Positions 18,001-27,000 of a stretch of 35,068 nt of DNA are shown here, in pieces. Each line of letters opens with the position of its first letter. The first letter of the stretch is position 1. Origin of the DNA: Elusimicrobiota bacterium. GTDB taxonomy: Bacteria > Elusimicrobiota > Elusimicrobia > UBA1565. A program made the position numbers. The stretch covers positions 1 through 35,068 of the forward strand of contig JBDRPD010000042.1 of the NCBI GenBank assembly GCA_043827405.1, read 5' to 3'.

Positions 18001-21000
18001 CCGGGGGAACGCTGCTGTTTACCTGGAGCGGCATCGTCGCCGGCCCATCGGGGATCAAGGGCTATCTTATTGAGTACCGCACCGGCGAGGTGCCGGTGTG
18101 GAAGAATGTGAAGACCGGAGGCGGCGCCATTGCCCAATCGGTGAGCTCCATTCGCCCGGCGGTCGCCGTGGCGGACAAAGATGTCGTTACCGGCAACTCC
18201 TACCAGGCTACGGGTCTACCCAAGGGCACGCTGTACTTCCGGATGCGGGCCGTGACCGGCGCGGGGCAGGCGGGGCCGGCCAGCGATCCAAAGAAGCTGC
18301 TCGTCGGCGTGACGGGAACCGAGAGCATCAGCCAGGTCAGCAGTTATCCGAATCCCTTCGATTCCCGAAAGGAAAAAGCGACCATCCATTATTCGCTGGG
18401 CACCACGAGCGAAGTGTCCATTGAGATTTACAGTGTCTACGGACGGTTGGTGCGTTCGCTTAGCGGGACCGGCAATCCGGGCTCCAACGAGGTGGTCTGG
18501 GACGGCACCGACGACGGCGGCGCCAAGGTATCTATGGGCATCTACCTCGCCGTTGTCGAGGTCGGCGGCGAAAAGACCATCCTCAAGATCGGCGTCAAGC
18601 ATTAGCGCCGTCTCCCGACCGATAAGCCTTATATTTTCACGTTAATTTTATGAGAAACTTCGGGATTTCTTCGTGTTTCCCCGCGCGCCGCCGCTACACT
18701 ATAGCGTGCGACGCCCATTGCTCATCATGGTCCTGGTCGTTCTGGTGGCTGTCCCGTGCGCTGTTTTCTCGACGGGAACCGGGCAGCTGACCCAGGTTTC
18801 CGCCTATCCCAATCCTTTCGACTCCCGCCAGGAAAAAACCAAGATCGCATATACCCTTTCCGAAGACCGGGGCGTCGCGGTGGATATTTACAGCGTCTAC
18901 GGCGCGCGGGTCTGGAATTGTTCTATCCCCCCGGCGGTACTCGGCGGCCGCCGGGGGGCGAATTATTTAACCTGGGACGGCCGCGGCAGCCGGGGCCGTA
19001 AAGTCGCCAAGGGCGTCTATCTCGCCGTCGTCCGGGCCGGCTCGGCCCGGACGGTCGTCAAGATCGGAGTGATCCATTGAAGAGGCTGATCGCGCTGCTC
19101 CTTCTTCTCCCGTCCGCGGCGCTGGCCGGAGTCGCCGGCCGGCCGGGCGAGCGGAACACGGTCGGCGCCGGCGCTCGCGCGCGCGCGCTGGGCAGCGCGC
19201 ACACCGCGGTGGTCCAGGATGCGACGGCGCTCTACTATAACCCGGCGGGGCTGGGGCTTCTCCCCGGCCGTGAGGTGTCGGTTATGCGCGCGCAGCTCTT
19301 CGGCGACGCCACCTACGACTACGTCGCCTATGCGCAGAACAAGCGCAAGCGCGCCGGCGGCTGGGGCATTGAGCTTATTCGCCTGGGCGTTCAGGGGGCG
19401 GAGGGCCGCGATGAGTTCAATAATGCGAGCGGCGGCTTCGGCTATTCGGAAATGTCGCTCGGTTTCGCGCATGGCTACCGCGGCGTTTTCGATCCGAACC
19501 TGTCGGTCGGCTTCAAGCTGAAGATGCTGCAGCGCAGCATGGACGGCGCCTCCGACCGGATGCTGGGGATGGATCTCGGGGCGCAGTACGGGCCGCTGTT
19601 GGGCGACAAGCTCCTGCTCGGCTTGGTCGCGACCAATGCCGTGGGGATGACGCAGGGCGAGACCGACGATAAGCTCGGGCGCGTCGTCCGCGTCGGCGCC
19701 GCCTACAAGGTTATCGGCCCGCTGTCGATCGCGGCGGATATGTCATCGGAGGGGGAGTTCCGCATGGGTACCGAATATGCGTTCGGGATCACCTCCGTCC
19801 GGGTGGGTTTTGAGGACAAAAACCTGTCGTTCGGCGGCGGCCTGATGTTCCGCCGCAAATACATGTTTGATCTGGCGCTGGTGACCCACCCCACGCTCGG
19901 CATGTCGCAGCGCATGTCGATCGGCTATAAGTTCGGCAGCGCCGTTCCGCGGCCGGGGGAGGAGCGGACCCAGCGCCAGACGCGCTACGCCCAGGAATAC
20001 CTCAACAATGCCAAGACGGAGCTCAAGAAGAGCAACTATCTGCGGGCATCGAGGGATCTTGATACCGCGCTGGGCATCGACCCGCGCATCGAGAACGGGG
20101 AATGGACCGCGCAGGCCGTGCGGCTGCGCCGGCTGGTTAAGGAACTCGATCTCGCCGGGCACGAGGAGGACGTCGCCGAGCTGGCGCAGGAGAGCAAGGC
20201 GGCCAAGATCGCGCAGAGCGCGATCAGCGCGTATCTCGACGGCGAGGACGACCGGGCGATGCTTTATGCGCACGTGGCGCGCGGCTCGGCTCCGCGCAGC
20301 GCCGCCTACCGGCGCCTGCTGGAGGGGATGGCCAAGATCACGGACCGCAAGATCGAGCGCGACCAGATTATGCCCCCGGAACGGCTGGTGGCGCTCAAGA
20401 TGAAGCAGGGGATGGATGCGGTCTATGCCCGCCGCTTCGCGATCGCGACCGAGGTTTTGCGCGAGGCGCTGTGGCTTGATCCGACCAACGCGCTCGCCTA
20501 TACCCGGCTCGGTTCCGCGCTCTACGCCATGGGCGACCGGGTGCGGGCCCGCCAGGCCTGGCTGAAGGCGCTGGAGCTTGATCCCGCCAACGAGAACCTG
20601 CGCCGCTTCATGGCGCAGCAGCAGATCGAGACGGGCGGGCAATAAAATGGCAACGCGAATAGAGGAAAATATCGGTGCCGGGAGTGAGCGATGGAGATCG
20701 TAATCTTCGTCCTCATTCCCGTGGTGTTTCTGGTGCTGGCGTCCAGCATGCTGGTGGTCAGCCAGGTGTCGAGCCTGTTTCAGACGACCCGGTATTCCAA
20801 GAAACGCCGGCTCGACCGCGAGAACATCGAGCGCAACCTGCTGAAGCTGGCGGTCGAGAAGGCGCGGGTGGCGCGGCGCAGCAAGCAGTTGGAGGGGTTG
20901 TCCAAGCGGCTGCAGGCAACCAATGTGGACCTGGATCGGCTTAACAGCATGAAAACAAAATTTCTTTCCATGGCGGTTCATGATATGCGCACCCCGCTGG

Positions 21001-24000: not shown

Positions 24001-27000
24001 GGAGGAATCCGCCGAAGAGCGGGAGAAGGAGCGGCAGGAGCGAAAGCGCTGGGAAGGGAATATGCTGGAGTCGCTCAAAAGCACGCGCCGTCAGTGGCAG
24101 AAGACCGGCGGTCCGGAGCTCCTGGTGGAGGCCGCGTTGGAGACTATGGTAGATTCTGTTAAGGAGCGGGATCGCCTACAGTTGGATATGGGCAAGCTGG
24201 TTATGATGCTCCAGGATGAGCCGCCGGACTCAAGGCGAACGCCGGCACTGCGGGCGCGGCTCGCCGAATATCAGAACAAGATGCGGGAGCTGCAAGAGAA
24301 GCTCGACAAGCAAACGGCGCTTATTGAGGCCTGGGTGAAGCGCAGCAAGGAAGCGGGGCAATGATATGGATCCATCGACACTAATCGGCGCCGTCGGCTG
24401 CGTCACGCTTATTGTTCTCGGCGCGGCGACCGGGGAGCTCTCCAAGGTCTTTCTCAACTGGCACGGCATCATTATTGTTTTCGGCGGAACGATAAGCGCG
24501 TTGTTTATCAATACTCCGCTGATCTATATTCGTGAGCTGATGAGCATGTCGCTGTCGCTGTGGCGCCGGGGCAGCCATGAGAAGGTGGAGACCCTCATCC
24601 CGGAGATCACGCGCATCGCCGAGCAGGTGCAGACCGGCGGCCTGGGGGTGCTGCGCAATATCGACACCAAGGCGGCCGGAGGCTACCTGTCGTCCGCCGC
24701 TACCACCGCCCTGGAATACAATAATCCCGAGTTTGTACGCACCGTTCTGGAGAATGAGGTCAATGCCCAGGTCGACCGGGCCAACGAGGTCATCAATGTC
24801 GTTCGGACCGCGGGCGTCGTTGCGCCCATGTTCGGACTGATCGGGACCTTGGTCGGAATTATCAAGGTCTTGGCCAATATCGCCGACCCCAAAACCTCGA
24901 TGGCCTATATGGCGATCGCGATCACGTCGGCGTTTTACGGCATTCTGCTGGCCAATGTCTTCTGTATCCCGGTCGCGGGCAAGCTCCGGCTGCGTTTATG
25001 GGAGGAGCTCAAGATCAAGGCGATTGTGATCGAGGGCGTTATCGGCATGATGAAAGGGACCGTTCCGCTGGTCCTGGAGCGCAAGCTGCATTCCTTCAAG
25101 TAGACATGGCTATCTATAAGTTCCGCAAGGACGAACTCGACAACGCGCTCAACAAGAACGCGATTTGGGCGATCGTCTACGGGGACATGATGAGCTATTT
25201 AATGATCTTGTTCCTGATGATGCTGTCCTACAGCATCAGCAAGGACATCGATCGCAAGTCGAAGACGTTCGAGGAAGCGCTCAATGAAGTGCAGGTGGTT
25301 TTCGGCGGCAAGATAGATAAAAAAGTGGCGGATCGCATCCAGGCGCGCGACAAAGAGTTCGTCTATATCGAGACCATGAAGCAGGGCGCGGAGGACGGGA
25401 AGTTCGGCGATGAGGCCTCGGTCATCGTCAGCGAGCTTAGCATTCAGCTGAACCTCGGCTCCGGAATTCTATTTGATTCGGGCGAGGCCACGCTTAAGCA
25501 GGATGCCCTGCCCAAGCTGGAAGTCGTCGCCAAGAACATGCTTAACGTTAAGAACGAGATCCGCGTCGAGGGGCATACCGATTCCGTGCCGATCGGCAAG
25601 CGCATGGGCTTCAAGTCCAACTGGGAGCTGTCGATGGCGCGCGCCTATTCCGTTATTCGGGCTCTGGAGGGCTTCGGCGTCGATCCCAAAAGGCTGTCCG
25701 GGGTCGGCTACGGCGAGCACCGCCCCGCCGGCGACAACAGCACCGCGGCGGGCCGGTCGCAGAACCGGCGTATCAGCATCGACCTGCTGCGCATCGGGCA
25801 GTAGCGCCCCCTCTTTCCTTAATCCTTCCGGCGATCGATGAAGTGTTTGGAGCCGCCGAAGCTCTTGGCGTGCTTTTTGAGCTCCGCGCCGAGCTGGCTG
25901 ACCTGGGCATGTGAGGTGAGCGGCTTGAGGCTGTTGTGGCAGATGCCGATCGCGATTCCCAGTAACGGGTATTCCACGGTTTCACCCCGCCGGTCCTTGG
26001 CGATGATCTTGCCGCGTCGCGCGTCTTCTTCCTTATAGAAGGAAGGGACTATCCGATCATACTCCGAGATGATGACATCGGCCAAGAGTTCCATTTTATC
26101 GGGATTGGTGACTACGATGAAATCGTCGCCGCCGATATGGCCTATGAAATCCCCTTCCGCTCCGCGAGCATGCACGGTATCCAGGATAAGCTTGCCGGTC
26201 GTTTTTAGGACCTGGTCGCCGGCGGCAAAGCCGTAGACGTCGTTGTAGGCCTTGAAGTTGTTGAGGTCCAGGTAGAGGATGGCCAGGGGGCCGCCGCGGC
26301 TGATCCGCTCCGCGATCTTGTTCTGAATCGAGGCGTTGCCCGGCATCTTGGTCAGCGGATTGGCGTCGATGCTCTGCTTGGTGCGCTTAAGGATCATGCG
26401 GATGCGGGCCAGCAGCTCAATGAGGTTGACCGGCTTGGTGACGAAGTCGTCGGCGCCGAGCTCGAGTCCCTGCACCTTATTGTCCAAGTCGGCGGCGCCG
26501 GAGAGCAGGATAACCGGCAGGTGCTGGCTGAGCGGGTTTTCCTTGAGCGCCTGGCAGACCTCGAAGCCGTTTTTCATCGGCATCCAGAGGTCCAGGATGA
26601 CGAGATCGGGAGGGGATTCGAGCACAAAATCGAGAGCGTCCTGGCCGTTGGAGGCCGCCCGGACCTCGTAGCCTTCCATCTCGAGCGCGTCCTGCATCAG
26701 CGCCAGCAAGTCGTCCTGGTCATCGGCGACCACGATGCGGGCGCCCACGGACGGCTGGCCGGGGATGTCGGGCTTGCCGTCTTGCGCAAGGGGGGGATCG
26801 CTCTGTTCCATCGCGTGCGTAAGGATACTTTATCGCGCGGCGGACCACAAGGAATTGACCGGGGTCAATGATTTCGATCAACAGTGGGATTCTTGGGCTT
26901 TTGTTAAAATCGCCCAAGACGTTGATCTTTGATGGGTAAAATCCCCGCGGAGTCGCCAAAAAACAAGTCTGGCGCGAATCCCATGGCGCTCGCTTTTGGG

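Follow-up and report, generated by a model that had tools for sequence, protein, structure and literature searches.

The window, a stretch of 35,068 nucleotides (positions 1 to 35,068 of contig JBDRPD010000042.1, Elusimicrobiota), contains a gene for a histidine kinase joined to a flagellar-type rotor protein, together with stator genes, a gene for a PorV-like barrel and a giant surface protein (Table 1). The host bacteria are groundwater-dwelling and without flagella. The gene order given in the preliminary description was found again, and runs from the giant protein through a tail-only protein, UPF0164 barrel with TPR tail, fusion, coiled-coil protein, MotA and MotB to the convergent Response_reg-GGDEF gene. 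Only the length given for the giant protein, 6200 aa, has to be read as a minimum (at least 6155-6200 aa), because the reading frame of this protein runs off the contig start.

Table 1. Genes and encoded features at the kinase-rotor locus (positions in the window).
Feature	Position	Strand	Basis or remark
Giant surface protein	3..18605	+	FG-GAP repeats, LamG domains, C-terminal FlgD-Ig / T9SS-CTD-like tail
Small exported tail-only protein	18727..19080	+	Sub-threshold FlgD_ig/Por_Secre_tail/CHU_C matches
UPF0164 barrel with TPR tail	19077..20645	+	Pfam
Kinase-rotor fusion ORF, 827 aa	20691..23174	+	One open frame, Pfam
Kinase TM1, residues 2-24	20694..20762	+	67% mean pairwise identity, 32 fused proteins
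HisKA, phospho-acceptor His97 (codon 20979-20981)	20949..21146	+	Pfam; H-box pattern in 43/47 kinase sequences
HATPase_c with N, G1, G2 boxes	21282..21623	+	Pfam, alignment
Putative internal Sec signal peptide, residues 312-338	21624..21704	+	Predicted cut after Ala338
FliF RBM3 / beta-collar-like periplasmic ring domain, residues 339-498	21705..22184	+	Profile and fold match
Rotor transmembrane helix (TM3), residues 510-535	22218..22295	+	71% identity, length fixed at 26 in 32 proteins
FliG middle and C-terminal domains, 597-666, 692-794	22479..23072	+	Pfam, profile, fold
Pro-rich / coiled-coil protein, no known family	23195..24364	+	Pfam: no match
MotA, flagellar-stator type	24366..25103	+	Pfam, alignment
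MotB with plug, OmpA domain, ion-binding Asp	25106..25804	+	Pfam, alignment
Receiver-GGDEF (GGDDF) protein	25819..26811	-	Pfam, synteny

The fusion and its distribution

As first reported, Pfam places HisKA at residues 87-152, HATPase_c at 198-311, FliG_M at 597-666 and FliG_C at 692-794, with an additional sub-threshold YscJ_FliF_C match at 363-390. The colinearity from residue 314 with the rotor paralogue on C68 was also reproduced (21% identity, 482 columns, E 1e-14, compared to 2e-13 before). The N-terminal part has the features of a class I histidine kinase: the phospho-acceptor His is present in HisKA, and HATPase_c, whose fold matches GacS and HK853 in a structure search, carries the N, G1 and G2 boxes (in 41, 43 and 47 of 47 kinase sequences). 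The kinase has no extracytoplasmic sensor domain, and TM1 is also kept in stand-alone kinases. Regarding the rotor part, the ring domain matches the FliF profile (E 1.2e-8) and the fold of 8z5v/6scn (Z 14.6, rmsd 1.8 Å over 98-100 residues), FliG-MC matches the 1lkv profile (E 6.5e-55) and FliG-C superposes on 1qc7 with an rmsd of 1.1 Å over 88 residues. Neither RBM1 nor RBM2 was found in the fusion by Pfam, profile or fold, residues 339-498 being taken up by RBM3 alone, and no FliG_N match was obtained, the FliG similarity beginning at the middle domain. The full-length structure model (pTM 0.32) is uninformative on domain contacts, and a fold search with it returned kinases only.

The fusion is real and widespread among homologues: 32 of 41, all from Elusimicrobiota, join the kinase to FliF-RBM3, helix and FliG-MC (30 with HisKA, HATPase and FliG, and two partial ones with HATPase and FliG), and it is kept across two families at 34-73% identity. 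An assembly artefact is ruled out, as a contig from an independent study reads through the junction with no gap (X2 record 11, 21564-21939). Removal of duplicates reduced the set from 61 to 58 sequences; P0029, starting inside the mature domain and probably a truncated call, was left out of the signal-peptide counts, and L041 and L042, where the anchor pattern was missed, were left out of the conservation and hydrophobicity comparison only.

The kinase is present in all 19 genomes with this rotor subfamily, fused in 8 and separate in 11, and its N-terminus was also found in one genome beyond these. Fused or not, it comes after the gene for the barrel in 18 of the 21 loci. In seven loci motA lies between kinase and rotor, the rotor copy G054b has no adjacent kinase, and in G180 the kinase stop overlaps the rotor start (ATGA). 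G180 and five other proteins form an unfused clade (support 98) nested within fused relatives, read as a lineage in which the chain has split at the junction into two overlapping genes; this tree, which came from a quick search and has an unresolved base, does not settle in which direction the first fusion event went.

The C-terminal part of the giant protein lies immediately 5' of the module in 11/21 orthologous loci, and its tail shares 49% identity with the small tail-only protein. UPF0164, which we take to be a PorV/FadL-like barrel by family kinship, occurs with its TPR tail 5' of the module in 19/21 loci, the remaining two being cut off by contig ends. Recognisable relatives of the coiled-coil protein, for which an Atlas search gave no match at 0.9, stand 3' of the rotor in most of the 21 loci, and MotA, MotB and rotor remain grouped in most loci. 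An Rfam scan of the whole window found no RNA match and no c-di-GMP-I riboswitch, and a promoter/terminator scan of the window gave results near chance.

The junction helix

The hydrophobic stretch reported at about residue 315 is present, but it behaves as a signal peptide and not as an ordinary transmembrane helix. As expected of substrates of signal peptidase I, it has a basic n-region, a short h-region and small residues at -3 and -1, and signal peptidase genes are present in the genome. By a fixed site rule, Ala occupies position -1 in 36 of the 37 fused sequences (0.18 bits), which are related and thus not 37 independent events; -3 is Ala in 24, and -2 is free (2.36 bits, half charged). 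The predicted cut site lies 3-7 residues before the first conserved residue of the ring domain, a varying distance that leaves it out of register with the fold. Identity at the junction is 38%, compared to 67% for TM1 and 71% for TM3, and its length ranges from 16 to 32, while that of TM3 is fixed. With a hydrophobicity of 1.79, it equals the signal peptides at the N-terminus of orthologues that are not fused (1.78), relative to 2.84 for TM1 and 2.67 for TM3.

A signal-peptide matrix trained on 36 unrelated PorV-like N-termini, crude because several training sites are visibly misplaced and Ala-rich in bias for GC-rich genomes, gave the window junction a score of 9.1 at the 338/339 bond, reached by 1.4% of 1614 internal helices of the genome. 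The median was 8.2 for fused junctions and 7.5 for the training set, with 4.8 for the MotB helix and 3.0 for TM1 and TM3; only 59% of the fused junctions exceed the null's 95th percentile, and two fall below 2. Internal re-initiation was rejected, since no in-frame ATG, GTG or TTG is present at the junction in the window or in G142, and Met in 11/37 n-regions is not above the 38% expected.

Judged by these sequence features, the middle helix is a retained internal Sec signal peptide, and cleavage of the fusion chain at Ala338 by signal peptidase I appears rather probable. The earlier statement that both parts act in one chain does not agree with the signal-peptidase features in 36/37 fused copies, nor with the 11/19 genomes encoding the parts separately. 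As counterpoints to cleavage, the uncharged run (median 17) could cross the membrane, and a chain left uncut would have a self-consistent topology with its three helices.

Readings of the module

The preferred reading, about as likely as not, is that the fusion would be a polyprotein cut by signal peptidase I into a membrane kinase and a ring subunit of an envelope module. TM1 would insert N-out/C-in, with the kinase folding in the cytoplasm; the internal signal peptide would route the RBM3 domain through Sec, and the third helix would halt transfer, leaving FliG-MC cytoplasmic. After the cut behind Ala338, the products would resemble the stand-alone kinases and stand-alone rotors of relatives. 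We infer that the ring subunits polymerise via RBM3 into an inner-membrane ring with FliG-MC beneath, that MotA/MotB engage this FliG-MC ring, and that the sensor-less kinase, recruited non-covalently via TM1 and its juxtamembrane segment, signals assembly or activity of the module to some regulator, much as FlgS reports on MS ring and rotor. The module may serve the PorV-like barrel and giant surface protein in export, presentation or surface movement. Against this reading, the persistence of the fusion in two families suggests some benefit of linkage.

The kinase, accompanying the rotor subfamily in 19/19 genomes, seems dedicated and so probably monitors the module non-covalently; that it senses this module is quite likely. 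The idea that it reports on the rotor is retained, given its intact catalytic motifs, this co-occurrence and the FlgS precedent, but neither as one chain nor with the proposed GGDEF output and mechanical state. The receiver-GGDEF gene adjoins the motor only in the family of the window fusion (4/21 loci; within 5 kb in 4/4 genomes) and adjoins atp genes in 11/20 best-hit loci, while it was not found in two genomes with the fused kinase and was found in 5/6 without; separate contigs in fragmented genomes do not alone prove distance. Synteny and co-occurrence thus rule it out as a dedicated partner, and it probably belongs to the atp neighbourhood. Synteny revealed no conserved cognate regulator in the operon. 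An OmpR-type winged-helix gene lies 3' of motB in three family members and near motB in G232, a lead only; no receiver domain was detected in it, and its closest match in G000 lies on C75.

Regarding the motor, MotA and FliG charge positions follow the E. coli numbering, mapped via T. maritima and Clostridium-type solved chains. The acidic torque residues D288/D289 of FliG are replaced (Gln in 50/58, Met in 36/58), and the MotA E98 equivalent is acidic in 0/18 and basic in 14/18, facing Lys in 47/58 FliG copies. In MotA, Ala replaces the second pore Thr in 18/18, while the first is invariant where readable and the MotB ion-binding Asp is kept in 17/18, one being masked. Canonical charge pairs (MotA R90/E98 with FliG D288-D289/R281; PMC12505986) are hence not kept in this rotor subfamily, which leaves rotation and the motor part uncertain and gives no support to a mechanical state being reported. 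Glu at FliG position 761 in 36/58 makes a charge swap possible. FHIPEP, Flagellin_N, FliMN_C and Flg_bb_rod had no matches in G000 (98% complete), with controls matching in 4/14, and FHIPEP had none in 18 relatives; these flagellar family searches in G000 found no axial structure to rotate.

These losses, with the missing axial structure, favor a static scaffold or clutch holding stator, barrel and kinase, the kinase reading ion flux or surface-protein load. The conserved MotB Asp and first pore Thr, the well-kept FliG-C fold, the possible charge swap and the grouping of MotA, MotB and rotor oppose this, making it quite unlikely; such a scaffold is compatible with cleavage. Should the chain stay whole, each ring subunit would bear a kinase, and assembly or torque would pass through the second helix to it. 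Its occurrence in 32/41 homologues and 8/19 genomes and the consistent topology agree with this, but the linking helix, together with the acidic linker (34%), is the least conserved part and varies in length, unlike a signal-transmitting helix, the cleavage motif is retained, and split and separated forms exist, so that an intact chain is unlikely. Adding the neighboring receiver-GGDEF as output, as its proximity in the 4/4 family genomes and the c-di-GMP-I riboswitch confirmed at the head of the paralogous C49 locus (L001, 7820-7896) might invite, makes a very unlikely share of the whole, as this gene tracks the atp operon and not the kinase.

Cleavage could also be regulated, by analogy with RsiV, the site being shielded until the ring is assembled or loaded, and the cut releasing or switching the kinase. 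Fusion and site are both conserved, and RsiV shows that signal peptidase can be gated by the conformation of its substrate (PMC4183432). The site is nevertheless of the canonical Ala-x-Ala type and stands, like that of orthologues exported constitutively, only 3-7 residues ahead of the domain; degradation of RsiP is reported to become constitutive when its site carries an Ala (PMC8844934); and lineages with separate genes could not use such a switch, so gating seems decidedly improbable. A neutral accident, in which loss of a stop codon fused the rotor gene with a kinase gene unrelated to it, is extremely improbable: the junction does resemble two abutting genes, as in the ATGA overlap of G180, but the frame is open in 37 distinct sequences and the independent assembly, and the kinase follows the barrel gene whether fused or not. 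A read-through origin is plausible and would not make the kinase unrelated. A wider picture is offered tentatively, as doubtful: Elusimicrobiota may have an ion-driven, flagellum-derived ring motor without export apparatus that works giant surface proteins via the PorV-like barrel. In the lineage of the window, the kinase built into its rotor subunit would then read the motor directly, either as an intact chain or by way of a signal-peptidase cut that depends on assembly of the ring or on load.

Under the preferred polyprotein reading, two separate proteins are probably made from the fusion gene, as part of an undescribed motor-like envelope machine. The literature searched describes neither the module nor a fusion of a kinase with FliG. 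The module departs from flagellar motors in RBM1-2 and FliG_N, in the export, switch, rod and filament genes and in the charge pairs, but shares the RBM3/FliG folds. A FliF/FliG ring with MotAB outside a flagellum bears on the origin or reuse of the flagellar motor, and would account for the motAB and fliG copies in this phylum termed enigmatic by Uzun et al. In the manner of a Rosetta stone, the fusion ties an orphan kinase to the module, with the caution that domain fusion need not mean one working chain, and the module is small enough for expression in E. coli. Among bacteria, conserved polyproteins that are cut at an internal signal peptide are rare. The FbcH cytochrome b-c1 precursor of Bradyrhizobium is an internal signal-peptidase substrate whose single gene yields two mature proteins; the literature search turned up no polyprotein that combines a kinase with a structural protein.

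Comparison with known systems

The SpoIIIAG ring is a further non-flagellar use of an RBM3-like domain (profile E 6e-4, Z 8.5), but lacks FliG, stator and kinase, and the domain described here is closer to FliF (Z 14.6). Type IX secretion and Bacteroidota gliding share the PorV-like barrel, CTD-like tails, giant adhesin-like protein and ion-driven motor; however, the motor here is MotAB with a FliF/FliG ring and not GldLM, and the CTD matches are below cut-off. A SprA search gave no match, its control also matching nowhere. With the flagellar rotor-stator core (FliF, FliG, MotA5B2/PomA5B2), the module shares RBM3/collar, FliG-M and FliG-C folds, a flagellar-type MotA and a MotB with plug, OmpA domain and Asp. 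It differs in the lack of RBM1/2 and of a FliG_N match, in ring and FliG forming one chain behind a signal peptide, in the altered charge pairs, in the absence of FlhA, flagellin, FliM/N and rod matches, and in the presence of barrel and giant surface protein.

RsiV and RsiP resemble the fusion in a signal peptidase I site after the helix that follows a cytoplasmic domain, RsiV being cut once lysozyme binding exposes the site (PMC4183432); unlike in the fusion, their cleavage is signal-gated and destroys the protein (PMC4183432, PMC8844934). A functional parallel lies in the assembly-checkpoint systems FlgSR/FlrBC/FleSR of polar flagellates, in which kinase activity is coupled to multimers of FliF and FliG (PMC3760246, PMC7064773), and the Campylobacter FlgS was experimentally shown to read FliF/FliG assembly (PMC3760246). 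FlgS is a cytoplasmic kinase with a gene of its own; it depends on the export apparatus, in C. jejuni also on FliG_N, and passes its signal to a sigma-54 activator (PMC3760246, PMC7064773), whereas the kinase here is membrane-anchored and co-encoded, FlhA and FliG_N were not found, and the operon has no cognate regulator. By analogy, its likely job would be a variant of the FlgS checkpoint.

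The kinase-rotor gene and its occurrence

The frame that the preliminary description reported as a histidine kinase fused to a rotor protein holds 827 uninterrupted codons, with HisKA, HATPase_c, FliG_M and FliG_C placed as it had said, and the neighbouring genes follow the order described, the frame of the giant protein being still open where the contig begins. A search with residues 310-810, limited to proteins of length 454-1448, returned 41 homologues, 30 of them with HisKA, HATPase_c and FliG, two, both partial, with HATPase_c and FliG, and nine kinase-less. The named homologues are labelled Elusimicrobiota except for one from NC10, and automatic JGI protein names already combine kinase and rotor labels.

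Among 301 genomes of the phylum, the rotor subfamily (E < 1e-60) is present in 19, and the distinctive N-terminus of the kinase (E < 1e-11) is found in all 19, as well as in one additional genome without a subfamily match, where it sits near a contig end. Kinase and rotor are fused in eight of the 19 and separate in 11. Regarding gene order, the kinase comes after the barrel gene in 18 of 21 loci (the window and 20 fetched ones), being fused to the rotor in eight, adjacent to it in three and parted from it by motA in seven; the other three comprise a kinase-less locus, one cut off and one with a different kinase. Stand-alone kinases have 312-327 aa and end at or shortly past HATPase_c, the catalytic boxes are found in 41-47 of 47 sequences, and there is no extracytoplasmic sensor, the first helix (TM1) being conserved (67%). 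On gene content, the kinase is a predicted member of the module.

The junction

Orthologues without the fusion start with an ordinary signal peptide. In the fused proteins, the pattern recurs behind HATPase_c, where basic residues are followed by a short run of Ala/Leu, by Pro/Gly, by Ala-x-Ala and then mostly by Gln. With the site fixed in 37 fused sequences as the first Gln/Glu/Asp ahead of the domain's first conserved Pro, Ala occupies -1 in 36/37 and -3 in 24/37, Gln occupies +1 in 32/37 and -2 is variable; since the junctions share ancestry, these are counts of related proteins. The +1 Gln is reminiscent of the Bacteroidetes Q-rule (PMC5837995), and the PorV-like proteins here do not have that pattern.

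Across 32 full-length fusions, the junction reaches 38% identity, compared to 67% for TM1 and 71% for the rotor helix TM3, and its length varies from 16 to 32, that of TM3 being fixed. Its hydrophobicity (1.79) is similar to that of unfused signal peptides (1.78), the true helices having 2.84 and 2.67. A crude, home-made cleavage-site matrix, trained on 36 PorV-like N-termini without kinship to the rotor, places its best site in the window protein at the 338/339 bond, with a score of 9.1 that 1.4% of 1614 internal helices attain; the fused junctions have a median of 8.2, and 41% of them fall below the null's 95th percentile. Moreover, signal peptidase I genes are present, and the window's junction holds no in-frame start codon. 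By its sequence pattern, the junction is a putative signal peptide.

In genome G180, the rotor start overlaps the kinase stop codon. A quick maximum-likelihood tree, built from 58 rotor parts with six outgroups and unresolved at its base, groups G180 with five database proteins in a supported clade that is nested among fused relatives. This reads as a putative secondary split of the fused gene, the DNA within this clade having been examined for G180 alone. Three fusion/split changes are required across the tree.

Rotor, stator and candidate outputs

Used as a profile, 23 mature rotor sequences match FliG-MC (E 6.5e-55) and FliF (E 1.2e-8). The predicted model of residues 339-804 (pLDDT 75) aligns with two flagellar folds, at Z 14.6 and rmsd 1.8 A over some 100 residues for the FliF RBM3 ring domain, and at Z 15.0 and rmsd 1.1 A over 88 residues for FliG-C, a second fold comparison ranking the matches identically; the rotor part has no space for RBM1 or RBM2, and FliG_N was not matched. 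The host genome (98% complete) has three further rotor/MotA loci and zero matches to FlhA, flagellin, FliM/N and rod, with positive search controls, and FlhA was not found in 18/18 relatives searched. The rotor family is detected in 108/301 genomes of the phylum, two large families being nearly without it (1/88 and 1/89). The UPF0164 barrel and a small tail-domain family are strongly expanded in the host genome (about 25 loci), frequently adjoining.

The MotB Asp is kept in 17/18 sequences (masked in one), and the MotA pore has one Thr in 18/18, with Ala at the second Thr position in 18/18. The MotA and FliG charge-pair positions were transferred through solved chains and are given in E. coli numbering. 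In the flagellar motor, the pairs are given as R90/D288-D289 and E98/R281 (PMC12505986). Here, the FliG acidic-pair positions hold Gln (50/58) and Met (36/58), and the R281 position Lys (47/58); the MotA E98 position is acidic in 0/18 and basic in 14/18, and the R90 position is Arg/Lys in 10/18. The rotor-stator interface would then be either rewired or else not torque-bearing. The paralogous rotor on contig C49 has a TPR-like tail and keeps the acidic residues of the torque helix.

The receiver-GGDEF gene, formerly proposed as the kinase's partner, is at most 5 kb from motB in 4/4 genomes of the window's family and in 0/17 other loci, some of which end early. Of 24 chosen genomes, 18 have the rotor subfamily; the best match is on a different contig in 13 of these and was not found in two, both carrying the fused kinase, and the gene is present in 5/6 genomes without the subfamily. 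Genes of the atp operon are at most 1.5 kb away in 11/20 best-match loci, nine of these 11 outside the window's family. By these synteny and co-occurrence counts, the gene neighbours the ATP synthase operon and adjoins the motor in the window's family only, and the proposed partnership is not supported. The c-di-GMP-I riboswitch also invoked does exist, immediately ahead of the C49 paralogue's barrel gene, and belongs to that paralogue. The remaining output candidates are transcriptional: an OmpR-type winged-helix gene without detectable receiver lies near motB in four loci, and in the C54 locus motB is followed by a second kinase and an OmpR-like gene.

Coordinates of features in the window, its genome and relatives
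Feature	Location	Remark
Kinase-rotor gene	20691-23174 (+)	
ATP synthase operon	26950-35068	three inserted genes between F1 subunit genes
Insert, unknown gene	31342-31803	153 aa
Insert, NAD-dependent epimerase	31805-32737	
Insert, PilZ-domain gene	33671-34033	
c-di-GMP-I riboswitch	L001:7820-7896	C49
Paralogous rotor locus, C54	L002:11357-14785	two motB genes, then separate membrane kinase and OmpR-like gene; this genome's second case of two-component genes paired to a motor locus
Second MotB, C54	L002:12022-12696	Asn replaces usual ion-binding Asp; possible asymmetric MotB pair
OmpR-type winged-helix protein	L034:12160-12816, L035:11532-12257, L036:6528-7184, L046:7002-7733	four relatives; degenerate receiver
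Its closest match in the host genome	C75:663-1370	contig other than the window's
Rotor-family match in 1210-aa open frame	G291:C79:8281-9666	further fusion possible
Rotor-family match in 960-aa open frame	G275:C44:22442-23902	further fusion possible
Several rotor-subfamily copies per genome	G054 (C6, C2, C20), G210 (C103, C66)	some without kinase or motAB

Interpretation and known systems

The reading that suits the fusion best is co-encoding, not a hard-wired sensor. In the account that we favour, and to which we give an even chance, signal peptidase would cleave a polyprotein, giving a membrane-bound kinase and a ring subunit, the FbcH precursor being a precedent; ring and stator would act on behalf of the barrel and the giant surface protein, and the kinase would watch the module via non-covalent contact. 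Cleavage, ring formation, kinase contact and output are what we infer. The earlier proposal of a motor hard-wired to its kinase is supported in part: the fusion and the kinase's place in the module are retained, and the single chain is not supported, considering the predicted signal peptide and the separate genes in 11 of 19 genomes.

An uncut chain acting as a sensor-rotor fits poorly with a weakly conserved junction of varying length, and seems unlikely. Gated cleavage of the fusion would share the putative site, and is quite improbable. A non-rotating scaffold, which overlaps the other readings, would agree with an interface bearing no torque and less with the retained MotB Asp, and we consider it doubtful. 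As for an artefact, the whole stretch lies within a single contig in run X1 (possibly the source sample), and run X2, from a different study, covers the junction gap-free with substitutions, leaving a negligible chance.

A literature search, with most subscription journals outside it, returned neither a description of the module nor one of a kinase-FliG fusion; within that scope, the module is undescribed. Uzun et al. (10.1101/2022.07.08.499144) noted that flagellum-less Elusimicrobiota have many homologues of motAB and fliG and termed their role enigmatic, the part of that source covered giving no architecture. Internal signal-peptidase substrates include RsiV (PMC4183432) and RsiP (PMC8844934). 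FlgS complexed with FliF and FliG forms an assembly checkpoint, as described by Boll and Hendrixson (PMC3760246), and this type has been extended to Vibrio and Pseudomonas (PMC7064773). Compared to the flagellar motor itself, the module differs in the defining features that were tested.
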